Part shown: positions 5,861 to 55,870 of the stretch, one piece after another
Layout of the letters: each line of letters opens with the position of its first letter
Position numbering within the stretch: position 1 is the first letter of the stretch
DNA from: an uncultured Eubacteriales bacterium
GTDB lineage: Bacteria > Acidobacteriota > Aminicenantia > Aminicenantales > UBA8522
Length of the DNA stretch: 64,000 bases
Reading direction: 5' to 3'
Assembly (NCBI GenBank): GCA_964558915.1
Contig: CAZLFV010000002.1
Location: forward strand, 20,501 to 84,500
Made by a program: the position numbers and the translations under genes
The notes under the pieces: generated by a model
Told to the model about the DNA's origin: nothing
The model's input: only the letters and a program-made list of their open reading frames with translations
The model's database searches: none

Positions 5861-5864
5861 GGCG

Positions 5865-7127: not shown

Positions 7128-7153
7128 CCAAAAAATGAACGATAAACACCGGT

Positions 7154-7678
7154 CTATTTTGTCGCCGGTTTGTCGTGTTTGATCTTTTCCCAGGCTGCTG
7201 CATAATCGAACGCGATGCCGTGGGCGTTCTCATGGCAGGTCAGGCAGTACTTTTTGGCAGCATCCGCAGACTCATACAAGATGAGGCCGTTCTTCTGGGC
7301 CAGGGCTCTGTCTTTCATGATGGAGAGTTTTTTGTATTCGCTTCCCGGGCCGTGGCAAACCTCGCAGGTGTCGCCTTCCGCCTTGAGTTCAGGAGCCTTC
7401 TCGAAGAGAGGCGCGTGGCATTTAAGACACTGGGGGCTTTCAGCCGGGTTCTCGACTCCGGCGGCTTGGGCTTTCGGTGCGGCTTCAGGAGAGCTGAGCG
7501 CGGCGAAGGACACGGAATGCTTGGACTTCTGCCAGATCGGATGCTGCTGGCCCTGGATTTCCGTTTTGTGGCAGATCGCGCACTTGGCCGACCCCACGTA
7601 GGAAAAAGTCTGGGCGAACAGGCTGATGAGCAAAACCGCGGCAACGATGACGACAAGCAAGACGACCTTTTTCATCAT
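7154..7678 (-). CDS. Tetrahaem c-type cytochrome (cytochrome c554-like family)
   Basis: CAICH, CLKCH, CEVCH, CLTCH. The motif GSAKCAICHKTEIQGQQHPIWQKSKH is typical of the c554-like family. I place the start at MMKKVVLL, preceded by GGGAGG. The ORF-track start at 7747 overlaps the promoter -35 box. Confidence 0.85.
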   Translation of the reverse strand: MMKKVVLLVVIVAAVLLISLFAQTFSYVGSAKCAICHKTEIQGQQHPIWQKSKHSVSFAALSSPEAAPKAQAAGVENPAESPQCLKCHAPLFEKAPELKAEGDTCEVCHGPGSEYKKLSIMKDRALAQKNGLILYESADAAKKYCLTCHENAHGIAFDYAAAWEKIKHDKPATK

Positions 7679-7718
7679 TCCTCCCGGCAAATCATGGATT
7701 ATTCCACAAAGAAGCCCC

Positions 7719-7747
7719 ATTTTAGAAAACTCCCAAAGGATTGTCAA
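7719..7747 (-). promoter_or_regulatory. Sigma70-type promoter P3 for the distal cytochrome module
   Basis: Minus strand reads TTGACA (7747-7742), a 17-nt spacer, then TAAAAT (7724-7719). It lies in the AT-rich 123-nt gap between the nonahaem and tetrahaem genes. Confidence 0.6.
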
Positions 7748-7801
7748 TATTTTTTACTATAAAAACGATAATTTTTATAAAAATGATAGAAATAATAGGG
7801 T

Positions 7802-9085: not shown

Positions 9086-9102
9086 AATTTCTTGGTTTTC
9101 TT

Positions 9103-10176: not shown

Positions 10177-10177
10177 T

Positions 10178-10603
10178 CTAAGATTTCTTCGAGACAAAAA
10201 TATCGCCGCTCCCTACCTCGATTTCGTAAGCCTCCAAGGGGCGCGGCGGCGGACCGGATATGACATTCCCGGCTAGGTCAAACCGGCCGTTGTGACAGGG
10301 GCAATAGAGGGTGCCGGTGTCGCTTTCGTAGCTCACGGTGCAGGTCAGGTGAGTGCACACGGCGGAAAAAGCCCGGAGCTGACCGTCGGCAGTATTGATT
10401 AACAGCGCGGGAGAGGACCCGAATTTGAACAGCTTGGCGGAGTTGGGCGCCAGCTCACCCACTTTGGCGGCGGCGATTTTCCTGGCCACGGCTTCAGCCT
10501 GGCGCGGAGGAATGAGATACCGGACGATGGGATAAAGAAGGGAAGTCGCAGTCCCCAGGAGAGACCCTCCGAGAAAGAAATTGACGAACTTTCGCCTCTT
10601 CAT
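10178..10603 (-). CDS. Rieske 2Fe-2S iron-sulfur subunit
   Basis: The two Rieske boxes CTHLTC and CPCHNGRF are present. N-terminal MKRRKFVNFF is twin-arginine-like and is followed by a TM helix. Confidence 0.9.
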   Translation of the reverse strand: MKRRKFVNFFLGGSLLGTATSLLYPIVRYLIPPRQAEAVARKIAAAKVGELAPNSAKLFKFGSSPALLINTADGQLRAFSAVCTHLTCTVSYESDTGTLYCPCHNGRFDLAGNVISGPPPRPLEAYEIEVGSGDIFVSKKS

Positions 10604-10607
10604 TTTC

Positions 10608-12593
10608 CTATTTTTCTCCGATAGATTTTACCTTTTGTTTGAGTTTTGTCAACAGCCCTTCAATGAACTGAGAGTTGTGGACCGAGAGGCTGCCGTCATT
10701 TTCGAGCATCCTGAGCATCTCCGCAATTTCAGCCAGTTTGGCCCGGTCGTACTCACCCAGGTCGAGCCTTTTCTTTTCCTCCATGCCGGCGAGGAGCGAT
10801 TCCCGCTGCTTTTTATAGGCATCCTGCCATTTTTCAAATATCTTCTTGTAGCTCTCCTCATGGCAATTCGAGCAGGTGGAGCTTCCGGCCGGACGCAATT
10901 GTCCTTTTTCCTGGCTGTGGCAATCAGCGCAAGCGACGTTGGCCTCGGCCATCATGTCCTTGGGGACTTCCCAAGCGGCCAGAGTCCCCCCCGCATAGAG
11001 TGTCTTTTGCAGGACATGGCACCTTCCACAGTCTGTCTTGGGATCCTGGTGGTGGCAAGCGGCGCACTGTTTTTTGGAGCCGATGAACTCCCCGTGTTTT
11101 TTCGCGTTGGAATGGCAGGTCGAACACTCCATTTTCTGGCTGACGACATGCGTTTTATGGGGAAAGGAAAGCCCGTAGAGCTGGCTGTTGATCTCTTCGA
11201 TCCCGGCATGGCACTGGGAGCATTGCGAGGGAATGTCTTGTGTTTTGGGCAGGAATCTTTCGGGCGTGTAAGAGGAACCGATGAGCTGGAGCGCTTCCTC
11301 CATATAGGCAAAGGCAGCCTGAAGCAGTTCCTGCGAGTAGGCCATGTTATGGACGCTCTTGCCTCTCTCAACGACGTCGATATTGAAAGCCGCATCGTCC
11401 AGCAACGACCCAGCCTTTTCCCGATGGGGGACCTTGCTCATTCTTACTTCCTGGGAAGACCTTTGATAGATCCTCCTGATCTGGTTCAGCCTTTTCTCAG
11501 TCGAGACCTGCCAGTTCCGGAGGATTCGGGCGAATCCTGTTCCGTGACAGGATTCGCAGGCCTGCTCCTTGGAGATCATGGTCTCGCTCTTGACCAGCTT
11601 GCCGCCTGCTTCCTCATGAAACATGTGGCAGCCCTTGCAGCTCAGTCCTTTTTCCAGCATGACATTGGGCAGCGCGTGGGCAACGCCTTTTCCGCCTTCC
11701 CCTGTGTAGAGGATCTTTTGGGCCTGATGAAACCCCGTATGGCAGGTCCGGCAATCGGCGATTGTTTCGATATCTTTAACGATTTTGTGCTGGATCTGGA
11801 GATGGCATTGGTTGCACTCAATCTTATGGGCTGTGATATGAGTCGAATGGATCAAATCTGTATCAGAATATTGATCCAGCCTTTCTTTCTCAAAATGGCA
11901 CTTGTAGCAGTTTTCGCGAGGGACGGCTCCGTCGCCGACAATGACCTGACTGTGGCACTTATCGCAGTTGAAGCCCTTTTCAAATACGAGAGTGTGGTCG
12001 AACCGGGATCCCTTTTCTGATATCAAATCCTGCTGGATGTGGCAGTGGGAGCACTCGCCGATCTGGGGGTAGTGTTCGCTCTTTTTAAAATGGCAGATAA
12101 AACATGTCGATTCTGTGACAGTTATGTGCTCCCCTTGAACGATCTGGGAATGGCAGCTTGTGCAGCGGAGCTTCTTTCCTCTTTTCAAATCCTCGAAGTG
12201 GATCTTGTGGTCGAAGACGACCGTCTTGAATTCCACCCGGCCCTGGAGAAGCCTGGTGTCGTGGCAGCCCGGACGGAGGCAGCTTTCATCCGGAATCTCT
12301 GCCCAGGGTCTGGACTTGAGGTAAAGCTTGCTCCAATACCGGCCCAGCTGCATCAGCCCCTCCACTTTTGCCCTGAAGAAAGATTTCAACCCTGGAGGAT
12401 AATGGCAGACGCTGCACTGGATGGTGCCGTGGGAAGAGGTTTTCCAGCTCTGATAGAAGGGCTTCATGTAGTGGCAGGTCGAGCAGAACCGGGATTGGGA
12501 CGTGATTTCTGCCGCGGCGATGAAAAGAAGCAGGAAAAACGCAAGACCACAAAGGAATATCAGACTCCTTTTCTTGGTGATCCGTATCTTCAT
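10608..12593 (-). CDS. 18-haem c-type cytochrome with N-terminal NapC/NirT-type membrane anchor
   Basis: N-terminal TM helix followed by SRFCSTCHYMKPFYQSWKTSSH, a NapC/NirT-like signature. 17 CxxCH plus CLRPGCH (CX4CH, nt 12261-12281) in 661 aa. Confidence 0.85.
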   Translation of the reverse strand: MKIRITKKRSLIFLCGLAFFLLLFIAAAEITSQSRFCSTCHYMKPFYQSWKTSSHGTIQCSVCHYPPGLKSFFRAKVEGLMQLGRYWSKLYLKSRPWAEIPDESCLRPGCHDTRLLQGRVEFKTVVFDHKIHFEDLKRGKKLRCTSCHSQIVQGEHITVTESTCFICHFKKSEHYPQIGECSHCHIQQDLISEKGSRFDHTLVFEKGFNCDKCHSQVIVGDGAVPRENCYKCHFEKERLDQYSDTDLIHSTHITAHKIECNQCHLQIQHKIVKDIETIADCRTCHTGFHQAQKILYTGEGGKGVAHALPNVMLEKGLSCKGCHMFHEEAGGKLVKSETMISKEQACESCHGTGFARILRNWQVSTEKRLNQIRRIYQRSSQEVRMSKVPHREKAGSLLDDAAFNIDVVERGKSVHNMAYSQELLQAAFAYMEEALQLIGSSYTPERFLPKTQDIPSQCSQCHAGIEEINSQLYGLSFPHKTHVVSQKMECSTCHSNAKKHGEFIGSKKQCAACHHQDPKTDCGRCHVLQKTLYAGGTLAAWEVPKDMMAEANVACADCHSQEKGQLRPAGSSTCSNCHEESYKKIFEKWQDAYKKQRESLLAGMEEKKRLDLGEYDRAKLAEIAEMLRMLENDGSLSVHNSQFIEGLLTKLKQKVKSIGEK

Positions 12594-12638
12594 TCAATAT
12601 CGCTTTCTTCGATGGTCCGGTTGAGTCTGCGGCTGCTC

Positions 12639-13457
12639 TTAAGCATAGCTATGCAACCCCGCCAGCAGGTAATTCACGCCAAAGTAGGTGAACAGGGCGG
12701 CGAGAAATCCGATGATGGCGATGGCGGCCGACCGCCGGCCCTTCCAGCCCATGACGATCCGGGTGTGGAGATACAGGGCAAAGACAAACCAAGTAATCAG
12801 GCTCCAGACCTCTTTCGGGTCCCAGCTCCAATAACTTCCCCAAGCCTTGTAGGCCCAAACCATGCCGAAGACAAGGCCGCCTAGGGTGAAGAGAGGAAAA
12901 CCGATGGCAATAGAGCGGTAGCTGATCGAGTCCAGTTTTTCCGCTGTGAGCGCTGATTTCGCCGCTTTCCCTCTTCGTTCCTTGGCGTCGGCCGCAAGGT
13001 ACATGATGCTCGTAATGAAAGCGATGGCAAAAAAGGCTTCGCCGATTAGGGTAACAGAGACATGTAGCCAGAGCCAGTAACTCTGCAGCGCCGGAACTAG
13101 AGGAGTCGTCTCTTTCGGCATGAGAGGCGAAGACGCCAAAGCCATAAGGGCGATGACAATGAGCATCAGGTAGCCGGCCGGTCTTTTGACCTTGTATTTT
13201 GCCTCAATAATAACAAAGGCCAGGATGGACGCCCAGGCCAGAAAAGAGAGGGACTCGTACATGTTGGTGAAAGGCGCATGGCCGCTTTCCACAGTCCTCA
13301 AAATGAGGGCCAGCGTATGGACGAGGAGGCCGGTCAAAGCCACAGAGAAACCAATCCTGGCCCTGTTTTCCTTATTGGAGAAAAGATGGGAGAAATAGAA
13401 GGCAGCCGCTAAAGCATAAAGGATGAAGGCGAGCAGAAAAAAAGTGGATTCGGTCAT
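12639..13457 (-). CDS. ccsA: System II cytochrome c biogenesis protein CcsA/ResC (haem export and ligation)
   Basis: Polytopic membrane protein with the WWD-type motif WGSYWSWDPKEVWSLITW. 4-nt overlap with resB. Confidence 0.9.
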   Translation of the reverse strand: MTESTFFLLAFILYALAAAFYFSHLFSNKENRARIGFSVALTGLLVHTLALILRTVESGHAPFTNMYESLSFLAWASILAFVIIEAKYKVKRPAGYLMLIVIALMALASSPLMPKETTPLVPALQSYWLWLHVSVTLIGEAFFAIAFITSIMYLAADAKERRGKAAKSALTAEKLDSISYRSIAIGFPLFTLGGLVFGMVWAYKAWGSYWSWDPKEVWSLITWFVFALYLHTRIVMGWKGRRSAAIAIIGFLAALFTYFGVNYLLAGLHSYA

Positions 13458-14809
13458 TTGCGTATCCTGAGAGAATTGATGATGCTTTCAAATTCCGTTT
13501 GAAAGGCCTCCCGGGCTTTGACGGAAATTCCGCCGGCCGTGACCTCTGTCTTCCCCTGGCTGTCCTCTAAAATAATCTTTAACTCTCGTGGCGGCCAGTA
13601 AAAGGCCAGGCCAAGCCCCACCATCAGCAGGACGCAGCCGACCCAGATGAGCGAGACGCCCGGGTCCTTGGCCACGTGAATAACTGAGTAGCTCGGCGCC
13701 CGGACATCTTTGAGTTCGAGAGTGATATCTGCTTCCTTGGCGCCGGAGTGGAGACGCGAAAAATCCGGGAACCTGGCGAAAATCCAGCCGGAGAACACCT
13801 TTTCTGTTCCTATCCAGCCTTCGATGAAGGCCGCTGGATTATTGGGCTCGAGCGAGCGGCTGGCCGGCTGGTTTTTTTCGTCCAGGACGAAATCAGGGAT
13901 GAACCGGACGGCGTTGAGCACAAGGGATTCACCGTTCAGGGCCGTTTTCTCGCCGATTTTCAGCCAGGCCTTTTTAAGGTAACTTGGGTCCGGCTTTTTC
14001 TTCACCCAGACCTCGAGCGACGGATGGTCCCAATCCGAACCGTAGCCGCTTTGATAAAACACGTAGCCTCGATGATTGAGGGGAGAGTTGACTTCGACTG
14101 TTTTTTGGAAGAGGGGCTTTCCGGCCTCAGTCACAGTGAGGAGGCTTTTCCAATCCTTGACGCTTCCGTTAGGATAGTATTCCGTCACGAATTGATCCAG
14201 CCGGACAGTAAAATCCGCCCCCGGGACTGAAAGAGTCCGGCCTTCGGTAAAGGTGAGGTCCTGGCGGAAACTGCCGAGCCCGCTGGCAATTCCGCCGGCC
14301 AAGATCACCAGGAGGCCCAAGTGGACGACATCAGACCCGAACCAGCCGAGGACCCTCTTCCGGGCGGTCAGGCAAGATCTATTATCGGTTCTGACTTCCC
14401 TGAGCCGGTAGCGCCGGCGGCGGAGTTCCTTCTTGACCATTTCTCTGGTTTCGGCGGCGGACAAACCGACTTTGAACTTGTCCTTGATTTTCAAAGCGAG
14501 AATGTTCTTGGGTTCGGTCTCCAACTTGGTCTGGAAGGTCCGCCGGAATTTGGGAAAGAGCCTTTCGAGCGTGCAGACGATGATATTCACGGCAAAGAGC
14601 GCAAGCAGGCCGACAAACCAGAAGGACTGATACAGCCTGGTGAACTGCAGGCGCTCAAGAAGCGCCCCGAGCTGGCCATAGCGGACAAGATATTCCTGGG
14701 TGCTTCTTCCCTGGGGGATTAGCGTTCCGACGATCGAGGCGCAGATGAGGATAATCAGTAGGGTGATGGCCACCCGGACCGAAGTGAAAAAATTGAGCAG
14801 GGCTTTCAT
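13454..14809 (-). CDS. resB: System II cytochrome c biogenesis protein ResB/Ccs1
   Basis: 451 aa. N-terminal MKALLNFFTSVRVAITLLIILICASIVGTLIPQG is a typical ResB start. Large soluble loop and C-terminal TM helix; coupled to ccsA. Confidence 0.85.
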   Translation of the reverse strand: MKALLNFFTSVRVAITLLIILICASIVGTLIPQGRSTQEYLVRYGQLGALLERLQFTRLYQSFWFVGLLALFAVNIIVCTLERLFPKFRRTFQTKLETEPKNILALKIKDKFKVGLSAAETREMVKKELRRRRYRLREVRTDNRSCLTARKRVLGWFGSDVVHLGLLVILAGGIASGLGSFRQDLTFTEGRTLSVPGADFTVRLDQFVTEYYPNGSVKDWKSLLTVTEAGKPLFQKTVEVNSPLNHRGYVFYQSGYGSDWDHPSLEVWVKKKPDPSYLKKAWLKIGEKTALNGESLVLNAVRFIPDFVLDEKNQPASRSLEPNNPAAFIEGWIGTEKVFSGWIFARFPDFSRLHSGAKEADITLELKDVRAPSYSVIHVAKDPGVSLIWVGCVLLMVGLGLAFYWPPRELKIILEDSQGKTEVTAGGISVKAREAFQTEFESIINSLRIRK

Positions 14810-14879
14810 GCCGCATCCTTGAGTCGTCTGTTTAATAACTACTAATTATATCGGAATACTCAATTTTTGGCCATCCTCT

Positions 14880-16115
14880 CTAGGTGCGGCCTTTACGCAT
14901 CTCCGCTGCGAGAGTCTGGATCTCTGTGAGCGACCGCCTCATTTCGCTCCAACCGTACCAGAGAGCGTAGTCCGGATTGGCATGAAAAGTCCCCTGAAAA
15001 GAGCGCATCCGGTGTTCGAGAAACATGACGAAGAGCTTCTGCTCCACTTCGGTTGGCGCGTCATGGAAAGTCAGAAGGTCGGGAAACCGATAGGCGTAGC
15101 TTGCCGGTTTCGGCAGGATGCCGTCCTGGTAAAGGGAGGCGACTTCTCGGATGGCCTCGGCCATCAGATGGTCGACTTCTTTGATCATCTCATCGCCTTT
15201 TTTGAGCTCTCCTTTGGCAAAATTCGCGCTATGGCAACTGGTGCAAATCCCGATCATCTTGTCCCGTTCTTTCTGCCAGGCTTCCTGGGTCAGACGGGCG
15301 ACGTCGGCCGCCTTGACGACATCAAGCCTTGGCGTGGGGTTACCGCTCGGGTCCAGAACGCCGAGAGCCTGAAGAATTGTGGCTCTGTCTGCAGCCCATT
15401 GCCTGTCCTCAGGCATCGGCAGCCGCACGGCCAGAAATCCCCAGGCAGTCCGGACTTCGTGGTTTTTCTCCTGCATATGGCAGGTCTGGCAGGAGGGCGC
15501 GGCAGTTGATTCGGGGAGGATTTTATTTTGTTTCAAGAGAAAGCGGACGCCGTGCTTGGAAGCGGAGTACATCTCCCATTGAGGATGATCGAAGCCCATA
15601 TGGCAGGTCTGGCAGGCTTGGGGCTGCCGGGCTTCGGTGACGGAAAAAATATGCCGCGTATGGCAGGCGTCGCAAGAGGCCCGGCCGAACCCTGCGCCGG
15701 CCTTATCGAGCTCCGCTATTTCCGCCTCTGTTTTCAGCCCGATCTTGTGGCATCCGCCACAGCCCTTCATTCCTTCCATCATTGCCACGGGCTGAGCGTG
15801 CGCTGTCGGCATGGCTTTCATCGCCGCCCAGGCCAGGGCGTGCTTGCCCCGCTTGAACTGGTTCACCTGGTCTTCGTGACAGGCAGCGCATGTTTCTGGC
15901 GTAGGGATCCCGGCCTTGGCAAAGTCCAAGGCGGTCTTGTGTCCTTCGCCGTGGCAAATAGAACAGCCCACCTCATTTTTGCTGTGCTCGCTCAGCAGCC
16001 AATCGCTGACGATGTAGGGTGTGGCCTTTTTATGACACTCCATACATTCCTGACCAAGGAGCGCCGGCGCAACAAGAAAACTCAAGAAAATCCCCACGAC
16101 GATTCTTCGCTTCAT
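14880..16115 (-). CDS. Octahaem cytochrome c of the hydroxylamine oxidoreductase (HAO) family
   Basis: 8 CxxCH: CMECH, CSICH, CAACH, CGGCH, CDACH, CQTCH, CQTCH, CTSCH. HAO-family spacing and landmarks are present: CDACHTRH, CQTCHMGFDHPQWEMYSASKHG, and a C-terminal helical domain after haem 8. Has a signal peptide. Confidence 0.8.
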   Translation of the reverse strand: MKRRIVVGIFLSFLVAPALLGQECMECHKKATPYIVSDWLLSEHSKNEVGCSICHGEGHKTALDFAKAGIPTPETCAACHEDQVNQFKRGKHALAWAAMKAMPTAHAQPVAMMEGMKGCGGCHKIGLKTEAEIAELDKAGAGFGRASCDACHTRHIFSVTEARQPQACQTCHMGFDHPQWEMYSASKHGVRFLLKQNKILPESTAAPSCQTCHMQEKNHEVRTAWGFLAVRLPMPEDRQWAADRATILQALGVLDPSGNPTPRLDVVKAADVARLTQEAWQKERDKMIGICTSCHSANFAKGELKKGDEMIKEVDHLMAEAIREVASLYQDGILPKPASYAYRFPDLLTFHDAPTEVEQKLFVMFLEHRMRSFQGTFHANPDYALWYGWSEMRRSLTEIQTLAAEMRKGRT

Positions 16116-16167
16116 GATGCACCTCCTCGACGGGGATAGAAGCCGCTGCTTGAAATTGGCGGATTAC

Positions 16168-16196
16168 TCTATAGCATCGCCCGCAGGAAAAGTCAA
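16168..16196 (-). promoter_or_regulatory. Sigma70-type promoter P2 for the HAO / maturation / Rieske-cyt b module
   Basis: Minus strand reads TTGACT (16196-16191), a 17-nt spacer, then TATAGA (16173-16168). It lies about 45 nt upstream of a GAGGAGG ribosome-binding site and the ATG at 16115. Confidence 0.5.
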
Positions 16197-16218
16197 AAAA
16201 TTGGCGGTAAGCATCTTC

Positions 16219-16584
16219 ATTTCCGTAAGCATTCTGCTTTAGAATAGGGTCCTGCCACGACTTCCCCGCCAGGGGGAGGAGGCGAGGGATGATGTGGTGA
16301 GAAGTCCGTATGAGCGACGAGCGGGCGTCGCGAGGCATCGAAGATGCCGTGGCGATCTCAGTTTGAGATTGCTTCGCTGTCGCTCGCAATGACAATCTTG
16401 ATTTGCGCAAGCAAATCAGGGGGTTCCAAGGGGGATGGCCCCTTTGGTCGCAGAGCAAAGCTCGAGAAGGGGAGGCAGGGAGCGCAGCGAACGTTGGAAG
16501 GGGGAACGCGGAGCGTTCTCCCTCCAAGAAACCAATGTGGGAAATCGCAGCTTGACTTCGAACCACATCTCCCGAGCCTCGTCG
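16219..16584. repeat. MITE-like structured interspersed repeat, copy A (left arm, core and a ~140-bp internal insertion; right arm missing)
   Basis: 16272-16396 matches 35829-35953 with 4 mismatches in 125 nt. 16537-16584 matches 35964-36011. 16397-16536 is present only in this copy. The left arm 16219-16262 is about 81% identical to the reverse complement of the right arm of copy B. Confidence 0.8.
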
Positions 16585-16638
16585 GGGCCCCCCGCCCCGT
16601 CGCCCTCTGCTTATCATCTCTAATTACAGAAATGGATC

Positions 16639-18978
16639 TTACCGCCAGGTGTACTTGGCCATGTTGCCGCCCAGACTTCCGATGGAGTCCGCGAGCAATT
16701 GAGCGATATAGAGGGGGTTGTGGATGAACCCGCAGGGTTCCTTCTTGCTCATCTGAAAATTATAGGCGGCCTTGAGCATGGCCGCGCTGAATCCGTACCC
16801 GTTGCTGGAAGTGAGCTCAGCAGGGTCTGCAATTCCGTCCCCGTCGGTATCTTTAAAGAAATATGGATAACTTATTTCGCTATAGACAATCGGGGCGCCG
16901 ATACTCCTCCCGTAGGCCTGAAGCTGCGTGTAAAGCGCGTCCTCGAGGCCCTTGATCTCCGCCTGCAGGGATTCGTTCTTGTTCCCATCTCCGTCGTAGT
17001 CAGGAGTCTGGGCCGGCCGGATCCCTTCGAACTCGAACTGGCTGGGGTCAGCGCCTGGATGGGGCTGGGCGATGTCCTGGCCATGGCAGGGCGCGCAATC
17101 GGCGGGGTTGGGTGCTTGGACGTTGTGGAATAAGGCGTCCGAATCATCGTGCTTCCTGTTGAAGCTCTTGGTTCCCATGTGACACTCGACGCAATTCGTA
17201 AAAAGCCCGTTGTGGTTGGTGAATATATTGCGGCCGGCATAGGTTTTTCCGCTGAATTCGTATCCGCCGCGGACTTCGGAACCGAAGAAGGAAGCCGCCG
17301 CTGCATAATAATGGATATTGGTGAAGCTGTACGGTCCCGGGCCGCCGGCAATCGCCCTGTCAACCGAGGACTTCGAAGCTCTTCCCTGGTGGCAGTTGAG
17401 GCACAGGTTGGAGCTGTCGGCCAGGTTCACGCTCACTCCGGAGGGAAATGTCACCGGACCGGCTGGCCTCGTCTGGGGCGGCACAATATGGCAGGTCAGG
17501 CAGAGCAGGCCGTTGGAAATATCCATGGCCTTGTCAATGGTGCCGTTATCGAGCAGGTAGGGGAGGCCTTGGGCGCTGTGGCATTTGGCGCAAGTTGACG
17601 GAACCTCTCCCTCCCCGTCCCAATGCCTCCAGGCCTCGGCTGATCCGTCGAAATGCCCTTCATCAGTCCGGACAAGTCCGCGGCCGGAGCCGGGTGCATA
17701 TTGCAGATAGGCATCCGCGGCCGATTCCAAGGAGCTTCGGGCAAGAATCTCATCATTCGGCAAAGGAAAGGTTCGCTCTTGGCCGCCCGCCTTAGACCGG
17801 CGCCCCGGCCGCAAGGGCCGCGTAAGACTTGGTTTCGAGACCGGAGTCTGGGTAGCGATTTCGGCACCTCTTGAAGTATTAAGGTCCTCGATTGAATCGT
17901 AAAGGAGTTCGATGATGTATTTTCCGTTATGAACATACTGGCATGGGTCTTTAATGCAAACCTGGAGGTTATAAGCGGCCTTGAGCAGGCGGGCGGTGAA
18001 GGAGCTATACCCGTTGCTTGACTCTGCCTCATTGGAGTCGACAACTCCGTTGTCGTTTTTATCATTGAAGAAGTAGGGATACGCGATTTCGTCGTAGGCG
18101 ATCGGCTTCCCGACGACATCTCGTGCGTAAGCGCGCATCGCGTTGTACAGAATCTCCCGGATTGTCTCGATCTCGTAGAAAATCCCCTCGGTGATATTCC
18201 CGTCCCCGTCGTAGTCAACCCAGGAGCCGTAATAGCGGATGTTTTTTGGGTTTTTGACCCCAGTGTGACAGGTGTTGCAGGCGTCCAGGTCAACCTCAAG
18301 AGAGTGCGGATCATGACAAACCTGACAGGCGTTGTAGCCGGGAATATGGGCGAACCGGGAGTCGTAAGATTTTTCGGCGTATTGATATCCTCCCCGGACG
18401 ACGGTCCCGAGCTGAGTAGCGGCAGCGGCATAGTAGTGGACATTGACAAACCTCAGCCTGGAACTCGGTTCATCGTCTGAGGTGACGCCTGACCCAGCGA
18501 TCGCAGTGTCGACAGATTTTGTCGAGGCCCTTCCCTGGTGACATTCCATGCAGAGCGTTTCTGGGCCGAGGCCTTCGATTTTCACTCCCGAAGGAAAGAT
18601 TGCATAGGTGCGGTTATGGACGACGCCTTTATCAGGGTCGGAATGGCAGGCGGCACACTCGACCGTTGTGCCCAGAGGAGCGGCATTGTCGACCGTATCC
18701 GGTGCAGTTCCGTCGGCGCCCAGATAATCCCTCAACCCGGGCGTGCTGTGGCACTTGGCGCAGGTTGTCGGGACCTGGCCTTCTTCATCCCAGTGCTTGA
18801 AGGCTTCGTCCCCTTTTTGAGCATGCGCCGAAGTAGACCACAGTCTTTGCGCGTGATCTCTTTTTGACTGAGGTTTTATGACCTCGTGGCTGGCCGTTCT
18901 TGCCAGGAGAAACGAACAGATCGCAATGACAGCCAAAAGGCCTAAAAGGTATGGTCTCCTGAACATCGTCTCCTCCAA
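16639..18978 (-). CDS. Decahaem c-type cytochrome built from two tandem pentahaem modules (putative cell-surface component)
   Basis: Module 1 has CAKCH, CAACH, CMECH, CQVCH, CNTCH. Module 2 has CAKCH, CLTCH, CLNCH, CVECH, CAPCH. The two ~350-aa halves are clearly colinear (HWDxEGxVPxTCAKCHS, FPSGV, CxxCHQGRAS, HYYAAAA, RGGY, YDGDGN, YPYFF, NGY, LKAAYN). N-terminal signal peptide. Confidence 0.85.
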   Translation of the reverse strand: MEETMFRRPYLLGLLAVIAICSFLLARTASHEVIKPQSKRDHAQRLWSTSAHAQKGDEAFKHWDEEGQVPTTCAKCHSTPGLRDYLGADGTAPDTVDNAAPLGTTVECAACHSDPDKGVVHNRTYAIFPSGVKIEGLGPETLCMECHQGRASTKSVDTAIAGSGVTSDDEPSSRLRFVNVHYYAAAATQLGTVVRGGYQYAEKSYDSRFAHIPGYNACQVCHDPHSLEVDLDACNTCHTGVKNPKNIRYYGSWVDYDGDGNITEGIFYEIETIREILYNAMRAYARDVVGKPIAYDEIAYPYFFNDKNDNGVVDSNEAESSNGYSSFTARLLKAAYNLQVCIKDPCQYVHNGKYIIELLYDSIEDLNTSRGAEIATQTPVSKPSLTRPLRPGRRSKAGGQERTFPLPNDEILARSSLESAADAYLQYAPGSGRGLVRTDEGHFDGSAEAWRHWDGEGEVPSTCAKCHSAQGLPYLLDNGTIDKAMDISNGLLCLTCHIVPPQTRPAGPVTFPSGVSVNLADSSNLCLNCHQGRASKSSVDRAIAGGPGPYSFTNIHYYAAAASFFGSEVRGGYEFSGKTYAGRNIFTNHNGLFTNCVECHMGTKSFNRKHDDSDALFHNVQAPNPADCAPCHGQDIAQPHPGADPSQFEFEGIRPAQTPDYDGDGNKNESLQAEIKGLEDALYTQLQAYGRSIGAPIVYSEISYPYFFKDTDGDGIADPAELTSSNGYGFSAAMLKAAYNFQMSKKEPCGFIHNPLYIAQLLADSIGSLGGNMAKYTWR

Positions 18979-18984
18979 TTCCTC

Positions 18985-20850
18985 TTAGTTCCAGCGGTAG
19001 CCAAAGGAGAACTCGAAGATGTTGGCCGCATAATTGTTGGATCCGGACAGTTTTTCGAGGTAGTCGACGCATCTGTAGCCGACCTGAGCCATGTAGCCGG
19101 CAGTAAAAGAATACTGGATGTACGCCTTGAGCGTGGCCCGGCGGATTTCCCAGGATCCGGCGTTGGAGAAGTAGTTGGCACAGCCGCCAAAGGTCCAGTT
19201 CTGGTTGAGGTCATATGAGAGCAGCACATCCAGCAGGCTCGATCCCTGCAGGTAAGAGATCGTCCAGAGGAATGACCCGCTAGGCGTGGTCCAATAAGGA
19301 GGAAATTCGACCATCCGGTCGGCCCGGCGTCTGGCCCGAATATAGGCAAACCCTCCGGAAACATTGAACCGGCCGGCGTGGTACCCGGCGCGCAGGCTGA
19401 ATTGGTTTCCGGACGCCTTCCAGGTATTTTCATCGAATACATCTGTCTCGGAGTTGTTCCAGATGTAGGACCCGGAGAAGCTCCAAGCCTTGACTTGATA
19501 TTTTGCCGTGATCCGGAGCCTATCAAAGCAGCTCGGGGAAATGAGGGCGAAGGGATTCTCGACCTGGCTGTGCTCGTAGTCAAGGGTTAGCTTAAGTACT
19601 CGCGAGATATCCCATCTGAGATTGCCGAAGGCGCCATTGCTTGCCGTGTCGAATTCATATTCGGCCGTTTCCAGGTTTTTGAGAGTCCGTTCCTCAAAAT
19701 GATAGCCGAGGGTTAAGGCCAAGTAGGGAGTGAAGGAGTACTGAACGCCTGCGTTGAATCCCAGAGTTTCATATCCAAAATCCTCTGTGTCGCCGCCTTG
19801 GTCGCCAGTCATAGCGCCGGTTTGGTCAAAGTTGTGAAAACGGAAGGCGGCCATAACCGTGAGCTTGCTTGACAAGGTGTATGTGGCATCCAACTCGTAG
19901 AGCTGGATGTTACGGGAGAAGTCTCCCTTGCCGGTATAGCTGTAGGCGAAATTTCTATTCAGGTAGCTGACCCCGAGTGCTCGCTCGGAATAATCAAGGT
20001 CCATGTCGAGCGCCGATAATTGGACCGATGCAGTCAAGAAGAATCTGTCCGTCGGCCTCGCATTGAACCAGAAAGAGCTGGTTACGGATTTCAAATCGTA
20101 GGGCTGATTCAGGAAAAAATAATAGAGTGAGGCGGGGTTCTCGGCCTCCGGCCCGCCGTCCACGTACCCGGGCAGGAAGAGGCTGTTCTGGTTCTTATAC
20201 TTCAGGAATTTTTCTTCTGCCACAAAGGAATAGCGGTTGAAATGGAGGTTCAAACCGACAGCGATCTCTTTCGACTCCTCCTGGACTGGCTTGTCCATCT
20301 CGAATTCCATCCGGTTGACGTTGAGGCTAGTTGTGCCCGCCCCCTTTTTAGTAAACCGGTCGAAGCTCAGATAAAAGTCGGCTTGCTTGGCCAGGGAGAT
20401 TCTGGCCAAGCCGCTATCCCTGACCCGGTCAAAATCGAAACGGTGAAGGTCATAAAGCCCGCCATCGCCCATATTCAGGTCATTATAGAAATAGTTCGCT
20501 TTTCTCCTGTCGTACTGCAATAGATACTTGCCATACTTCTGGAGCGATGCGGAGATAGTTTCGAAGGGATCTCCACCCAGGTTGAACATCCGGAGGTTCA
20601 GCCGGTCAAAAACTTTTTTGAGGTCGTTCTGCGGAGAATAGACCAGGTTGAAACTATAAAGCCGGGCGCCGCCGGAGAGATTGTAATCTTCTTTATAGTT
20701 GGAGACAGCGCCGGGCCCGCTGAGGTTTACGGAGCGAAACCCAAGGAGGAAATCGCCCGAAAAGTCACTGTTTTGGGCTCCCAGAGAGAGAGACAGGAAG
20801 AACGCCAGAACAACACCCAGGAATGCCGTGATTGTCTTTCTGCTGTTCAT
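18985..20850 (-). CDS. Outer-membrane beta-barrel protein, putative MtrB/PioB-like porin of a porin-cytochrome complex
   Basis: Signal peptide MNSRKTITAFLGVVLAFFLSLSLGAQ, preceded by AGGAGA. About 600 aa of alternating amphipathic beta-strand pattern. The terminal FEFSFGYRWN is an OMP-like aromatic-rich C-terminus. Flanked by decahaem genes on both sides. Confidence 0.65.
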   Translation of the reverse strand: MNSRKTITAFLGVVLAFFLSLSLGAQNSDFSGDFLLGFRSVNLSGPGAVSNYKEDYNLSGGARLYSFNLVYSPQNDLKKVFDRLNLRMFNLGGDPFETISASLQKYGKYLLQYDRRKANYFYNDLNMGDGGLYDLHRFDFDRVRDSGLARISLAKQADFYLSFDRFTKKGAGTTSLNVNRMEFEMDKPVQEESKEIAVGLNLHFNRYSFVAEEKFLKYKNQNSLFLPGYVDGGPEAENPASLYYFFLNQPYDLKSVTSSFWFNARPTDRFFLTASVQLSALDMDLDYSERALGVSYLNRNFAYSYTGKGDFSRNIQLYELDATYTLSSKLTVMAAFRFHNFDQTGAMTGDQGGDTEDFGYETLGFNAGVQYSFTPYLALTLGYHFEERTLKNLETAEYEFDTASNGAFGNLRWDISRVLKLTLDYEHSQVENPFALISPSCFDRLRITAKYQVKAWSFSGSYIWNNSETDVFDENTWKASGNQFSLRAGYHAGRFNVSGGFAYIRARRRADRMVEFPPYWTTPSGSFLWTISYLQGSSLLDVLLSYDLNQNWTFGGCANYFSNAGSWEIRRATLKAYIQYSFTAGYMAQVGYRCVDYLEKLSGSNNYAANIFEFSFGYRWN

Positions 20851-20860
20851 CACTGTTCTC

Positions 20861-21756
20861 CTATTTGAGGAATTTCTTGTCCAGGTTCGAACCATGAATC
20901 GAGGAATGACAGGTCACGCAATTGGTCCCCTGAGAAGTGAAACTGCCGTGCCAGGCCGGCGCCTCAGAGTGACAGCTGAAGCACAGGTCGGCGATGTTCT
21001 GCTCAGTCAACATATGGCGGTTGGGCGACCCATGGGCCTGGTGGCAGATATTGCAGCCCTCGACCCGGGAGGCCTGGTGTTCATGGAGAAAAGGACCCCC
21101 TTTGTCGGTGTGGCAGCGGATGCACTCCTCTTGTTTGAACCCGGCCAGTCGTATCCGGAGAGCCGGTTCATGCGGATTGTGGCAGGAAGTACAGGTTACA
21201 ATTCCTTCCTGAAGCCGGTGCCGCCTATTCAGCTGGAACTCGGCGAAGACGTCCTCGTGGCAGCGCGCGCAATCTGTGTTTTTCTGAGTTTTGAGAAGCG
21301 GAGAAGCAGCAACCTCGCCGTGAATGTGGTGGCAGGTGGTGCAATCGAGCGAGGCTTTCCCATGCGGGCTGTTGGTGAACCGGGGGCTGTCTTTTTCATG
21401 ACAGGTCAGGCATTTCTGCGTTTTTGCGCTGGCCGGGTTGGAGGCGGCAAAAGAGAATACGCCCGCCTTGCCTCCTTCGTCCACGTGTTGTTCCGCGCTC
21501 CCGTGGCAGGCCGTGCAGGTCGGTTCGGTCAAGCCGGCATGGGGCCGGGAGGAGAATCTCTTGACCACTTCTTCGTGACAAGTGCCGCACGTTTGCGTGT
21601 CTTTCGCCTGGGCTGTCGGCTTGGCCGCGACCCCAACGCGACGACGGCGGCGAATGCGGCCATGAGGCCGATCGTCGAGAGCGGGGCAGTCCTTAATTTT
21701 CTTTTCCTTTGTGCTGACAACTCCAACCTGCTTGAGAAACTCTTCGTCCATCTCAT
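20861..21756 (-). CDS. MtrA/DmsE-like periplasmic decahaem c-type cytochrome, apparently frameshifted near the 5' end
   Basis: 10 CxxCH in about 240 aa: CGTCH, CTACH, CLTCH, CTTCH, CARCH, CTSCH, CIRCH, CNICH, CFSCH, CVTCH. The haem frame (ATG 21751) has no hydrophobic leader. The overlapping frame from ATG 21756 encodes KRKLRTAPLSTIGLMAAFAAVVALG. Confidence 0.8.
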
Positions 21757-21918: not shown

Positions 21919-22383
21919 TCAGCGTCGAACTCGGGCTTTCTCCTTGCCTTTGGCCTTCTTTTTTCCGCAGACATCCAGGACGTACTGGAGGGTGACCCTT
22001 TCGAAATAGTTTTTCAGGATCTGGCTGGCCTCTTTCCAGATCTCGTAGGCGGCGCAGGTCGGGAGACGGTCGCAAAAATCTTTATCCTCGATGCAGTCGA
22101 CGAGGGCGCAGGACCCTTCCAAGGCTTCCAGAATTTTGCAGAGATTGATCTCCGACGGCTTGCGGGCGAGAGTATAGCCGCCGCCCGCGCCGCGAATGCT
22201 TTTTACGAGCTTGTAGATCTTCAAAGGGATGATGATCTGCTCGAGGTAGCGGAGGGAAATCTCCTCCTCCTCAGCCACGTTTCTCAGGATGACTGCCTTT
22301 GTGCCGCTGGTATAATGGCGGGCGAGGTTTAACATGAGGCGGAGGCCGTATCTTCCCTTGGTGGAGACTTTGATCATGCTCAC
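21919..22383 (-). CDS. Rrf2-family transcriptional regulator with a Cys cluster (probable Fe-S sensor)
   Basis: MIKVSTKGRYGLRLMLNLARHY plus a winged-helix region (ISLRYLEQIIIPL, SIRGAGGGYTLA). Cys cluster CALVDCIEDKDFCDRLPTC. Lys-rich tail. Confidence 0.85.
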   Translation of the reverse strand: MSMIKVSTKGRYGLRLMLNLARHYTSGTKAVILRNVAEEEEISLRYLEQIIIPLKIYKLVKSIRGAGGGYTLARKPSEINLCKILEALEGSCALVDCIEDKDFCDRLPTCAAYEIWKEASQILKNYFERVTLQYVLDVCGKKKAKGKEKARVRR

Positions 22384-22646: not shown

Positions 22647-24245
22647 ATGATAACAGAAATCTTGCTCGGCGATGAGGCCGTTGCCCTGGCCGCCGTACAC
22701 GCCGGCCTCACCGCGGCCTATTCGTATCCGGGAACTCCGGCGACGGAAATTATGGAGTACTTGATCAAAGCCGCGTCCAAGTCCAAGGGGCTCAAAGCTT
22801 CCTGGTCGGTGAACGAAAAAGTCGCCTACGAGGAAGCTCTGGGTGTCTCGTTTGCCGGAAAACGGGCGCTGGTCTCGATGAAACACGTGGGATTAAACGT
22901 GGCGGCGGACCCATTCATGAACTCCGCCCTCACGGGGACGAACGGCGGCCTGGCCGTTGTCATCGCCGATGACCCCAGCATGCACAGCTCCCAGAACGAG
23001 CAGGACAGCCGCTACTATGCCCAGTTCGCCCTGATCTTTTGTTTCGAGCCCTCAAATCACCAGGAAGCCTATGATATGACCCGCCGCGCCTTTGACCTTT
23101 CTGAAGAAATGGGGATTCCGGTAATGATCAGGCTCGTCACCCGGCTCTCTCACAGCCGTTCGAGCGTCGTGCCCCGTCCCGCCAGGGAAGAGAATCCGCT
23201 TCATCATGGCGCCTGGACAGACTGGACGCTCCTTCCAGTCAATGCCAGACGACGCTTCAAAATGCTGCTTGAGAAGCAGGCCGAGCTTGTCAAGTTATCA
23301 GAAGGATCAGATTTCAATTCTCTGGCGGTCAACGAGGACGACCGTTCAGTCGGGGTGATCGCTTCGGGAATTGCCTACAATTATGTCAGGGAAAACCTCA
23401 GAGATATCCGGAGAGGCCCATCCCTTCTCAAAATCGGCACTTATCCGCTTCCGCAAAAGCTCGTGGAAAATCTCGTGCGGCATGTGGAGACAGTCCTTGT
23501 CGTCGAGGAAGGCTATCCCTTCATCGAGAAAACCTTGCGCGGGACATTTGGCCTGCCCGGGAAAACAATCAAAGGAAAGCTGAGCGGCCATCTTCCGCTT
23601 CAAGGAGAACTTTCTCCCGAAATCGTTCGAGCCGCGCTCGGGCTCAAACCGCTGGATCGGCATAAAGTTGCCGAGTTCGAACTTGCCGCTCGGCCCCCCC
23701 AGCTCTGCCAGGGCTGTCCGCATGCCGATACTTTTCATGCCCTGAACAAGGTTCTCCAGGACTACCCTGGCGCCAACGTTTTCAGCGATATCGGCTGCTA
23801 CACGCTCGGAGCTTTTCCCCCGTACAGTGCTGTCCAGACCTGCGTGTGCATGGGCGCGAGCGTCGGCATGGCCAAGGGCGGCGCCGAGGCGGGGATCTTC
23901 CCTTCTGTGGCCGTGATCGGTGATTCGACGTTCGGACATTCCGGGCTGACGCCCCTGCTTGAGGCGGCGGCCGCCAACACAAACATGATTGTGATCATCC
24001 TGGACAACAGCACAGTGGCTATGACCGGAGGTCAGCCGAGCTACGCCTCTGGAGGAAGCCTTCTCAAGATGATCGAAGGCCTCGGAGTGCCCAAAGAGCA
24101 CATCCGGGTTATCAAGCCATTGCCCAAGAACCTAGAGAATAACGCTAGAGTGATTCGAGAAGAGATCGATCATAACGGGATTTCTGTCATCGTGGCCGTG
24201 CGGGAATGCCTCGTGGAGGCAAGGAAAAAGAGGAGGAGCGGATAG
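22647..24245 (+). CDS. iorA: Indolepyruvate:ferredoxin oxidoreductase alpha subunit (TPP enzyme)
   Basis: N-terminus LLGDEAVALAAVHAGLTAAYSYPGTPATEIMEYL. CQGCPH motif and TPP-binding region GDSTFGHSG. Followed directly by iorB. No CxxCxxCxxxCP ferredoxin motif is present in this ORF. Confidence 0.8.
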   Translation: MITEILLGDEAVALAAVHAGLTAAYSYPGTPATEIMEYLIKAASKSKGLKASWSVNEKVAYEEALGVSFAGKRALVSMKHVGLNVAADPFMNSALTGTNGGLAVVIADDPSMHSSQNEQDSRYYAQFALIFCFEPSNHQEAYDMTRRAFDLSEEMGIPVMIRLVTRLSHSRSSVVPRPAREENPLHHGAWTDWTLLPVNARRRFKMLLEKQAELVKLSEGSDFNSLAVNEDDRSVGVIASGIAYNYVRENLRDIRRGPSLLKIGTYPLPQKLVENLVRHVETVLVVEEGYPFIEKTLRGTFGLPGKTIKGKLSGHLPLQGELSPEIVRAALGLKPLDRHKVAEFELAARPPQLCQGCPHADTFHALNKVLQDYPGANVFSDIGCYTLGAFPPYSAVQTCVCMGASVGMAKGGAEAGIFPSVAVIGDSTFGHSGLTPLLEAAAANTNMIVIILDNSTVAMTGGQPSYASGGSLLKMIEGLGVPKEHIRVIKPLPKNLENNARVIREEIDHNGISVIVAVRECLVEARKKRRSG

Positions 24246-24836
24246 ATGAAGCAAGATATCATCCTGGCCGGTGTCGGAGGGCAGGGCATCCTCTCGATCG
24301 CTTTTGTTATCGACAGCGCCGCTCTCAAAGAAGGCCTCATGGTCAAAGAAGCAGAAGTCCATGGCATGTCGCAGCGCGGCGGAGCAGTCCAATCGCACCT
24401 CCGGCTCTCCCAGGAACAGATTTTTAGCGACCTTATTCCCAAAGGCGAAGCCGACCTTATTTTAAGCGTCGAGCCTCTTGAAACGCTCCGTTATTTGGAT
24501 TATCTCCGGCCCGAGGGCACGGTGATTTCCAGTCGCTCTCCCTTTGTGAACATCCCCGACTATCCTGACCTCGAAAAAATCCTGACCGCCATCTCCCGGG
24601 CGGGACGTCACCTCCTCGTCGATTCCGAAGAACTCGCCAAGAAGGCGGGCTCATCGCGCACGCAGAACATGGTCATGCTGGGCGCAGCGTCTCGGTTGCT
24701 CATGGTCAAAAAGGAAAATCTTGTCGAGTTCATAGAAACGCTCTTCAAGCCGAGGGGAGAGAATATTGTCACGGCCAATCTGAGGGCCTTTGAGCTCGGC
24801 CGCGAAGAAGCCGGCCTGTTGGCGGAAAAAAGATGA
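24246..24836 (+). CDS. iorB: Indolepyruvate:ferredoxin oxidoreductase beta subunit
   Basis: MKQDIILAGVGGQGILSIAFVI and EVHGMSQRGGAVQSHLR are typical of the 2-oxoacid oxidoreductase gamma-type domain of IorB. The start abuts the iorA stop. Confidence 0.85.
   Translation: MKQDIILAGVGGQGILSIAFVIDSAALKEGLMVKEAEVHGMSQRGGAVQSHLRLSQEQIFSDLIPKGEADLILSVEPLETLRYLDYLRPEGTVISSRSPFVNIPDYPDLEKILTAISRAGRHLLVDSEELAKKAGSSRTQNMVMLGAASRLLMVKKENLVEFIETLFKPRGENIVTANLRAFELGREEAGLLAEKR

Positions 24837-55595: not shown

Positions 55596-55870
<275 letters not shown>

Follow-up and report, generated by a model that had tools for sequence, protein, structure and literature searches.

Several kinds of multihaem cytochrome serve as the last step of extracellular electron transfer (EET). 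OcwA of Thermincola potens (6I5B) and OmhA of Carboxydothermus ferrireducens (6QVM) are cell-surface terminal reductases of Gram-positive bacteria; OcwA consists of a c554-like tetrahaem part and an NrfA-like pentahaem part, nine haems in all. MtrC, OmcA and MtrF of Shewanella have ten haems derived from a duplicated pentahaem unit, and MtrA-type and MtrB-type genes lie alongside. Here we describe a gene for a decahaem cytochrome on the minus strand of a 64,000-nucleotide stretch of DNA, henceforth the window, from an uncultured bacterium of the Aminicenantes (contig CAZLFV010000002.1, positions 20,501 to 84,500). Its product is a c-type cytochrome that is exported by the Sec route and consists of two ancient paralogous pentahaem modules. 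We modestly favor the reading that this protein, the target of the present analysis, is an uncharacterized tandem of OcwA/NrfA-like, probably Ca2+-stabilized modules that acts as the outward, electron-exchanging partner of an MtrAB-type porin-cytochrome conduit; that is, a functional analogue of MtrC or OmcB. It is a variation on known multihaem EET cytochromes and porin-cytochrome conduits, not a new principle, and the main uncertainties concern the fold affinity of the modules, the cellular location of the protein, and the state of haem 1.

The role proposed for the target, the last cytochrome of an EET chain, is that of OcwA and OmhA, and like the target, both have a conserved His downstream of the third haem motif in the NrfA-like part. 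Unlike OcwA, the target contains two copies of one pentahaem module, of which its relatives have one or three; its identity to OcwA and OmhA is 14-18%, with template-modeling (TM) scores of 0.21-0.34, and whereas their hosts are Gram-positive, its host is a diderm in which the gene lies behind an MtrA/MtrB pair. E. coli NrfA (2RDZ/1GU6) shares with the module five haem motifs in the same order, four collinear His residues and long C-terminal helices, but the module lacks the CxxCK motif, is about 100 residues shorter, and contains two DxDxDG loops that have no counterpart in the NrfA alignment. The target resembles MtrC, OmcA and MtrF in its ten haems from a duplicated pentahaem unit, in its MtrA-type and MtrB-type neighbors and in its presumed function; it differs from MtrC in having helix bundles instead of beta-barrel domains, in the absence of a lipobox, and in gene order, which is A-B-X rather than C-A-B. 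In the Geobacter porin-cytochrome (Pcc) clusters OmaB-OmbB-OmcB (PMC4282303, PMC4245776), the genes for a periplasmic cytochrome, a porin-like protein and an outer cytochrome follow one another in the same order as in the target locus, with a transcription-factor gene included; there, OmcB is a 12-haem outer-membrane cytochrome and its periplasmic partner is an 8-haem protein that is not MtrA-like.

The open reading frame (ORF) of the target extends over 16639-18978. The TTG codon listed as its start, at 18978, falls within a ribosome-binding site, GGAGGAG. The ATG at 18966, with GGAGGAG just 5' of it, is likely to be the real start, which results in a protein of 775 residues; this length matches the product called in four independent metagenome assemblies, whose products are identical. 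Residues are therefore counted from the Met at 18966, and the numbers in the first-pass annotation of this DNA are higher by 4. The features of the gene and protein are as follows.

16639..18966, minus strand: coding sequence of the 775-residue decahaem c-type cytochrome (stop codon at 16639-16641)
18895..18966, minus strand: Sec-type signal peptide, approximately residues 1-24, from the N-termini of 81 homologues; the first invariant His after it is residue 48
17866..18861, minus strand: module 1, residues 36-367, with CxxCH at 69, 104, 139, 214 and 230
18529..18543, minus strand: CHQGR, end of the haem-3 motif of module 1; its Arg lies on E. coli NrfA Tyr216 in the alignment
18418..18444, minus strand: NVHYYAAAA block of module 1, whose His177 may be the sixth ligand of haem 1 or part of the distal pocket of that haem
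18181..18216, minus strand: loop A of module 1, DYDGDGNITEGI, of the DxDxDG type
18028..18063, minus strand: loop B of module 1, DKNDNGVVDSNE, a 12-residue EF-hand-like pattern, invariant in 81 close homologues
17680..17865, minus strand: inter-module linker, residues 368-429, Ala/Pro/Ser/Arg-rich, predicted to be disordered, subclade-specific
16642..17679, minus strand: module 2, residues 430-775, with CxxCH at 459, 489, 522, 592 and 624
17380..17394, minus strand: CHQGR, end of the haem-3 motif of module 2
17293..17319, minus strand: NIHYYAAAA block of module 2 (His552)
16966..17001, minus strand: loop A of module 2, DYDGDGNKNESL
16816..16851, minus strand: loop B of module 2, DTDGDGIADPAE

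Alignment of the two halves of the translated ORF by BLASTP (residues 1-400 against 401-779) yields just one alignment, 346 columns long, in which 138 residues are identical (40%; E = 2e-72), which is far beyond chance. The tandem duplication of a pentahaem module of about 330-350 residues, as claimed in the first-pass annotation, is thus borne out by a formal self-alignment; all the sequence blocks quoted there are present, and each half indeed contains five CxxCH motifs, for a total of ten. The strand, the MtrA/MtrB operon context, and the single- and triple-module relatives were absent from that annotation. The linker, said there to be rich in Pro, Arg and Ser, comprises 62 residues, of which the commonest are A8, P7, S7 and R7. 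Its predicted local distance difference test (pLDDT) score in an AlphaFold2 model is below 50 throughout. It is an insertion confined to a subclade of proteins of ~770 residues; in homologues of ~720 residues the two modules abut. At the DNA level, only two short patches of the repeat can still be aligned, one of 64 nt at 77% and one of 165 nt at 66% identity, and we therefore consider the duplication to be old.

In an alignment of 81 homologous sequences, all ten CxxCH motifs, five additional His residues per module and both DxDxDG loops (DYDGDG in loop A, D-x-N-x-N-G-x-x-D-x-x-E in loop B) are invariant or nearly so. The non-motif His residues are 48, 177, 207, 221 and 346 in module 1, where three long helices follow, and 438, 552, 585, 614 and 749 in module 2, which has the longer, NrfA-like spacer between haems 4 and 5. 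The same five His residues and both loops are kept in a wider set of 70 modules, taken from one-, two- and three-module proteins and including Chloroflexota, Trueperaceae and Myxococcota. The first-pass annotation had noted calcium-loop-like DxDxDG motifs; this holds up, in that DYDGDG is found at 255 and 660 in TTG-based numbering, and each module has two such loops that are conserved across the 70 modules and are consistent with structural Ca2+ sites. Loop A, D-[YF]-D-G-D-G..E, with the Glu at position 10, is kept in 64-69 of the 70 modules. Conservation of the loop B pattern, D-x-[ND]-x-[ND]-G-x-x-D-x-x-E, ranges by position from 56 to 66 modules (D1 in 66, position 3 in 66, position 5 in 65, G6 in 64, D9 in 56, and E12 in 56, with Asp in 7 more). 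Judging from these patterns, both loops probably bind Ca2+ in a structural role. Loop B is preceded in the AlphaFold2 model by a short beta strand (E299-301) rather than by a helix, and of 24 modules, just 3 have a match to a Pfam EF-hand model, with E >= 0.05. Thus, DxDxDG-type loop is a better label than EF-hand.

Two further features of the modules were observed. A lone Cys lies four residues before the His of the helix bundle, in the sequence EPCGFIH of module 2 (~16729-16743, residues 742-746); it is also found in the consensus of the last modules of Aminicenantes, and module 2 has no partner Cys for it. The equivalent in module 1 is DPCQYVH (~17938-17967, residues 334-343), where a second Cys lies five residues before. 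In addition, a conserved short motif follows directly after the last helix at the C-termini of the family. It is ...YTWR in Aminicenantes (window positions 16642-16656) and ...(T/V)RP or ...TR in relatives elsewhere, and may be structural or serve as a sorting signal.

The module belongs to a widespread, uncharacterized family for which there is no curated model. An initial homologue search yielded 4757 matches at E<=1e-3 among 8000 candidates scored; the named ones are from Candidatus Aminicenantes and are annotated as 'hypothetical' or as a generic cytochrome. When 1.84 billion cluster representatives (50% identity) were searched with a module profile, 2854 were recovered at E<=1e-3 and 515 at E<=1e-30. 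Two-module proteins occur in Aminicenantes, Chloroflexota (Anaerolineae), Trueperaceae (Deinococcota) and metagenome-assembled genomes (MAGs) of Myxococcota/'Deltaproteobacteria'. Three-module, 15-haem proteins also occur in Myxococcota/'Deltaproteobacteria' MAGs (L036 7161-10967, L042 5896-9759, P0090, P0229); these have lipoboxes, and one cluster has N-terminal Big_2 Ig-like domains. The search for single-module homologs suggested in the first-pass annotation recovered complete proteins of 355-390 residues with exactly five CxxCH motifs and with signal peptides, lipoboxes or N-terminal anchors. One is from a cultured marine alphaproteobacterium, Limimaricola soesokkakensis (five haems, 362 residues, WP_085895985.1; L058/L059 7001-8089), where the gene stands alone next to, and divergent from, the Na+-NQR operon; another is from a Mesorhizobium MAG. 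The NCBI name of such single-module relatives is 'polyheme membrane-associated cytochrome C', with no NCBIfam model behind it. In neighbor-joining trees of modules, which were rooted at the midpoint and are indicative only, the first modules of all phyla cluster together, as do the last modules, with the middle modules of three-module proteins near the base. Single-module proteins mostly group with the first modules, and one (P0339) groups with the last. The separation of first and last modules into clades that cut across phyla implies that the duplication predates the spread of the family. A literature search for this module family in Aminicenantes or Chloroflexota found nothing specific.

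As to fold, neither Pfam nor NCBIfam has a model that spans the module; the matches were limited to generic c3/c7 CxxCH families and a partial, sub-threshold match to an MtrC/MtrF domain. A direct search of PDB sequences with the whole protein likewise found nothing meaningful. The structure of the polypeptide alone was then predicted with AlphaFold2 on the 81-row alignment (mean pLDDT 75.5). The model consists of two modules, in each of which a compact, largely irregular haem-binding region leads into a bundle of three long helices (H262-285, H325-338 and H343-364 in module 1; H667-688, H728-742 and H751-764 in module 2), and is almost all helix and coil, with few short strands and a disordered linker. 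The two DxDxDG loops of each module belong to the bundle. In a Foldseek search of the PDB with this model, OcwA (6i5b) ranked at the top (probability 1.00, E 6e-3, TM 0.22/0.34), followed by OmhA (6qvm; probability 0.95). Further down, with E > 1, were NrfA chains (from Geobacter metallireducens, G. lovleyi and Sulfurospirillum), octahaem nitrite reductase and MccA, and no MtrC, OmcA, MtrA, OmcS, NrfB or c3-type chain, nor any further multihaem fold, was listed. A prediction for a single module, from a 15-row alignment, was poor (pLDDT 60.6), and recovered the same Foldseek families at non-significant levels. The module profile, searched against PDB sequences, also found OcwA first (3e-4) and NrfA next (1.6e-3 to 4e-3). 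The structure of OcwA comprises a globular haem domain and a C-terminal three-helix bundle reminiscent of NrfA (PMC6703420), an order of parts also seen in OmhA and one that matches the predicted anatomy of the module.

Alignment of the 70-module profile with E. coli NrfA by hhalign is collinear over 263 columns. It places haems 1-5 of the module on C122WSCK, C160, C209, C282 and C314 of NrfA, and the invariant module His residues 13, 172, 186 and 311 on His94, His275, His301 and His393, which we take to be the distal ligands of NrfA haems 2-5. For haems 4 and 5, this result agrees with the profile alignment, in which the spacer of module 2 matches that of NrfA (CxxCHM, 16-18 residues, H, 7-9 residues, CxxCH). 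The score with NrfA is above those of 25 of 25 motif-preserving shuffles, with z = 2.8, compared with z = 1.4 for the MtrA-like protein and 1.0 for NrfB. With NrfA as a single sequence, hhalign aligned haems 1-2 only. The hhalign probability of 93.9% was itself discarded as proof of homology to NrfA because it is unspecific: unrelated multihaem proteins reach 91-95%, and one shuffle reaches 89%. Affinity to the OcwA/OmhA/NrfA group is thus the best-supported fold assignment and in our view a moderately probable one; in the shuffle controls, NrfA stands out only moderately, and the MtrA-like protein and NrfB do not.

The haem count and operon neighbors of the target are the same as those of MtrC, and the MtrC/OmcA/MtrF/UndA family of outer-membrane decahaem cytochromes is also internally duplicated. 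It might therefore be asked whether the target is a divergent member of that family. The Pfam model PF22113, for MtrC/MtrF domains II/IV, does match haems 1-3 of both modules, at 29.5 bits against a cut-off of 30, and it matches all 24 modules tested, with a best E of 7e-7. By contrast, no MtrC, OmcA, MtrF or UndA chain was found at E<=10 in two Foldseek searches or in the PDB profile search, and the OmcA/MtrC family model TIGR03507 was listed neither for the full protein at E<=0.01 nor for the two modules at E<=10. Moreover, the predicted structure is nearly free of beta structure and has three-helix bundles where MtrC has two beta-barrel domains, and the target has no lipoprotein signal. With PF22113 below its cut-off, TIGR03507 unlisted, no two-beta-barrel architecture, and no lipobox in any of 81 homologues, we rejected membership in the MtrC family, to which we assign hardly any probability.

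The residues that define NrfA are not kept in the module: haem 1 has CAKCH instead of CxxCK, an Arg occupies the position of Tyr216, which we take to be the catalytic Tyr of NrfA, and no His is aligned with His264. The position near NrfA Arg106 is variable (K/R/T/I/V/N), and the positions of the NrfA Ca2+ ligands, Glu215 and Gln263, are not aligned with like residues. The match to Pfam PF02335 has an E of 0.19 or worse. For comparison, the catalytic set of the S. deleyianum enzyme is K131/Y217/H282/R113 (PMC9250108). From the loss of these residues, we conclude that the target is not an NrfA-type nitrite reductase.

What, then, is the state of haem 1? In each module, four of the haems are probably bis-His coordinated, judging from the conserved His residues, and we propose that haem 1 would be a special site, with the invariant N-x-H-Y block lying over its distal face. 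The His of this HYY block is found in 70 of 70 modules and brings the number of non-motif His residues to five, the same as that of the haems. It is located between haems 3 and 4, a segment that in NrfA presumably walls the distal side of haem 1, and it has no NrfA counterpart in the alignment. Accordingly, two roles come into question for it: sixth ligand to haem 1, or a His on the distal side that forms no bond, like that of OcwA (PMC6703420). Between ligation of haem 1 by this residue and an open site of the NrfA/OcwA type, we put the chances near even.

If the HYY His were the sixth ligand, the target would be a pure bis-His wire with ten six-coordinate haems and no substrate site. To this we give a little less than an even chance. 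It would rival only the notion of a special haem 1, and is compatible with a role in a conduit. The number of invariant non-motif His residues, exactly five per five CxxCH in all 70 modules, is what such a wire would need, with four of them on the presumed distal ligands of NrfA and the fifth without a counterpart there. In addition, several single-module relatives have L, I or T in place of the Arg of CHQGR, which is present in 64 of 70 modules; this weighs against an essential catalytic role for the Arg. In the solved relatives, however, the haem is five-coordinate where the NrfA-like module keeps it: NrfA, ONR, HAO, HDH, IhOCC, OcwA and OmhA all keep a five-coordinate haem in their C-terminal NrfA-like module (PMC9250108). 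Specifically, a conserved, non-bonding His lies on the distal side of that haem in OcwA and OmhA (PMC6703420), and a sequence fragment of OcwA contains an HH pair after the third haem motif of its NrfA-like part, in the same order as in the target. The first-pass annotation had read the 'invariant HYYAAAA and CHQGR' blocks as evidence of distal-ligand or substrate-site geometry rather than a simple haem wire. This was a fair statement of the alternatives, and invariance holds for the HYY His; it does not hold for the CHQGR Arg, and the preference over a simple wire is not established.

We now turn to the genes around the target, whose order (Rrf2, MtrA-like decahaem, barrel, target, octahaem, ResB, CcsB, 18-haem NapC-like) is conserved in about 25 Aminicenantes MAGs. 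In the window, these neighbors are:

21919..22383, minus strand: Rrf2-family regulator, at the head of the conserved order
20861..21751, minus strand: MtrA/DmsE-like periplasmic decahaem cytochrome with 10 CxxCH, upstream of the target
18985..20850, minus strand: 621-residue outer-membrane beta-barrel, distantly MtrB/PioB-like, with a signal peptide and a conserved C-terminal ...SFGYRW
14880..16115, minus strand: secreted octahaem cytochrome, HAO/HDH-like (PF13447), directly downstream of the target
12639..14809, minus strand: ResB and CcsB, system II cytochrome c maturation
10608..12593, minus strand: candidate quinol dehydrogenase of 661 residues and 18 haems, its N-terminus membrane-anchored and of the NapC/NirT type

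For the MtrA-like protein, the match to chain A of 6R2Q, presumably MtrA in the Shewanella baltica MtrCAB structure, has an E of 3e-25, and the score on TIGR03508 (DmsE family) is 178.8 bits, just below the cut-off of 192.2; an exact look-up of the 296-residue product found no record. The barrel itself has weak matches, and only to generic outer-membrane barrel models, and MtrB was not detected in a search of the PDB with its profile. Its identity rests on its homologues (31-48% identity), which have matches to PF11854 and the NCBI name 'MtrB/PioB family'. Between the end of the barrel gene and the TTG of the target there are 6 nt. The octahaem cytochrome, which is kept in the operon in most Aminicenantes loci, matches models of the hydrazine/hydroxylamine oxidoreductase type (NF052343, 92.9 bits; PF13447), and at 411 residues is far shorter than the hydrazine dehydrogenase model, which has 564 positions. 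The gap between the target and the octahaem gene, 16116-16638, measures 523 nt, versus ~200 nt in the closest relative. A 195-residue ORF at 16030-16617 was considered as a gene in this region and dismissed as spurious, since none of 52 related loci contains a homologue and part of the ORF lies within the octahaem gene.

With its tight gene order behind the mtrA-like and barrel genes, the locus is laid out like a porin-cytochrome conduit in which the target stands where the outer cytochrome would be. On this basis, the target would be located at the cell surface, and electrons would flow as follows. From the 18-haem NapC-like quinol dehydrogenase, acting alone or together with the octahaem cytochrome, electrons would pass to the MtrA-like wire inside the barrel, and from there to the target. 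The two five-haem chains of the target would then deliver them to acceptors outside the cell, for example Fe/Mn oxides, humics or partner cells. This flow may be reversible, so that electrons might also travel inward. Outside Aminicenantes, homologues with lipoboxes are found in Chloroflexota and Myxococcota; together with the Big_2 surface domains in three-module forms, they fit exposure outside the cytoplasmic membrane.

Several observations weigh against this outward role. OmcB is a lipoprotein; in the N-termini of the 81 Aminicenantes homologues there is no lipobox Cys, and AxA-like cleavage sites are found instead. With no lipobox or other surface anchor evident in these sequences, a periplasmic location would also be compatible with them. 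Outside Aminicenantes, the homologues have no mtrA/mtrB neighbors (other multihaem and b-type membrane cytochromes are often nearby), and the Limimaricola gene is an orphan, which implies that the module is not tied to porin conduits. The link to OcwA and NrfA is weak, as reflected in the Foldseek values (E 6e-3, TM 0.22-0.34) and in the hhalign probabilities of 91-95% for unrelated multihaem proteins and 89% for one shuffle, and the pentahaem-domain model PF22113 falls only half a bit short of its cut-off in its partial match. Lastly, the conduit may be impaired in this particular genome by a 1-nt deletion that puts the signal peptide of the MtrA-like protein out of frame. That is, at the 5' end of this gene (21623-21756, minus strand), the part encoding the signal peptide (ATG 21756, MRWTKSF...LMAAFAAVVALG) is not in frame with the haem-bearing ORF (20861-21751); compared with L001, its closest relative, the gene lacks a base at GTTGGGG^TCGCGG (~21630). 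Two independent assemblies (ENA ERZ781360 and JGI 3300022551) share this deletion, which thus is not a random assembly error. The gene could be a pseudogene, a fixed frameshift that needs a -1 slip, or one with an alternative start.

Some of these observations would be explained if the target were a periplasmic protein, either a shuttle from the NapC-like protein to the MtrA-like wire or an NrfA-type reductase that has an open haem in each module and acts on small molecules (nitrite, hydroxylamine, NO or sulfite). All 81 Aminicenantes homologues have a Sec signal peptide only; the closest relatives in structure and sequence are proteins of the NrfA group, an HAO/HDH-like octahaem cytochrome is encoded directly downstream, and the module occurs in aerobic Alphaproteobacteria without conduit genes. 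A reductase of this type is, however, at odds with the loss of the NrfA catalytic residues (CAKCH, Arg at Tyr216, no match to His264, and unlike residues at the Ca2+-ligand positions). A periplasmic location in general is disfavored by the tight, conserved order behind mtrA and mtrB, with a gap of just 6 nt to the barrel gene, and by the relatives in other phyla that are lipoproteins or have Big_2 surface domains. We therefore regard a periplasmic role as unlikely, though not negligibly so, and retain as our preferred reading that of an outward partner of the conduit.

The module is also found in fusion proteins, where it comes after cytoplasmic signaling domains. In three clusters (P0322, P0332 and P0372, one of them from Anaerolineales), the order is Ser/Thr kinase, membrane helix, module; other fusions are with a caspase domain (P0343), with a methyl-accepting chemoreceptor that has two modules (P0330), and with a STAND ATPase-TPR-Bmp protein (P0378). 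The module thus also serves as the extracytoplasmic part of signaling proteins, which suggests a multihaem extracytoplasmic sensor domain; that is, a self-contained unit that may respond to redox state or to a ligand. Could the target itself be primarily a redox or ligand sensor and not a respiratory component? Its module is the one found in these kinases, in the caspase-domain and STAND-TPR proteins and in the chemoreceptor, but the protein in the window has no signaling domain, and its operon is one of electron-transfer and cytochrome-maturation genes. We consider this very improbable.

These observations could be combined in a broader proposal, which we put forward tentatively, as a possibility only. 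The module would be a widespread, unrecognized derivative of NrfA/OcwA with two Ca2+ loops and one open or ligand-exchangeable haem, used as a stand-alone protein, in surface cytochromes with two or three copies in tandem, and as a sensor in signaling. The Aminicenantes protein would then be an OcwA-type terminal reductase mounted on a diderm MtrAB, in place of MtrC.

The target operon is part of a respiratory run of ~18 kb (3847-21751, minus strand) that contains 79 CxxCH motifs. Also in this run are four additional multihaem cytochromes (427 residues with 9 haems, 197 with 4, 420 with 9, and 414 with 11), a cytochrome b561-like protein, and a Rieske/cytochrome b pair (9103-10603). Three of the four additional cytochromes pass the threshold of the Pfam MtrC/MtrF domain; the one of 427 residues scores z = 3.1 above shuffles against the module profile. 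Adjacent to the cytochrome island, on the plus strand at 22647-27190, are genes for the alpha and beta subunits of indolepyruvate:ferredoxin oxidoreductase, followed by an ADP-forming acyl-CoA synthetase-like protein; together, these genes would be consistent with an amino-acid-fermenting lifestyle. An Rfam scan of the window and a promoter and terminator scan around the gene found nothing relevant to the target gene. At 55601-55867 (plus strand), the window encodes a bacterial large signal recognition particle (SRP) RNA (Rfam RF01854, 159 bits).

Aminicenantes are abundant, uncultured bacteria of sediments and the subsurface, and are usually called fermenters. Through a conserved MtrA/MtrB conduit that looks complete, they would be able to exchange electrons with the outside of the cell, and an outer cytochrome such as the target would escape tools that are keyed to MtrC or OmcB. 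A literature search found no paper describing such an MtrA/MtrB conduit with an outer cytochrome in Aminicenantes. To our knowledge, OcwA-type terminal reductases have been structurally characterized only from Gram-positives, and those of the MtrC type only from Proteobacteria. The occurrence of single-module members in cultured Limimaricola makes the open questions directly testable, and provides a tractable model for biochemistry. If our reading is correct, a tandem OcwA/NrfA-like cytochrome behind MtrAB would mean that conduits and outer cytochromes have been mixed and matched.

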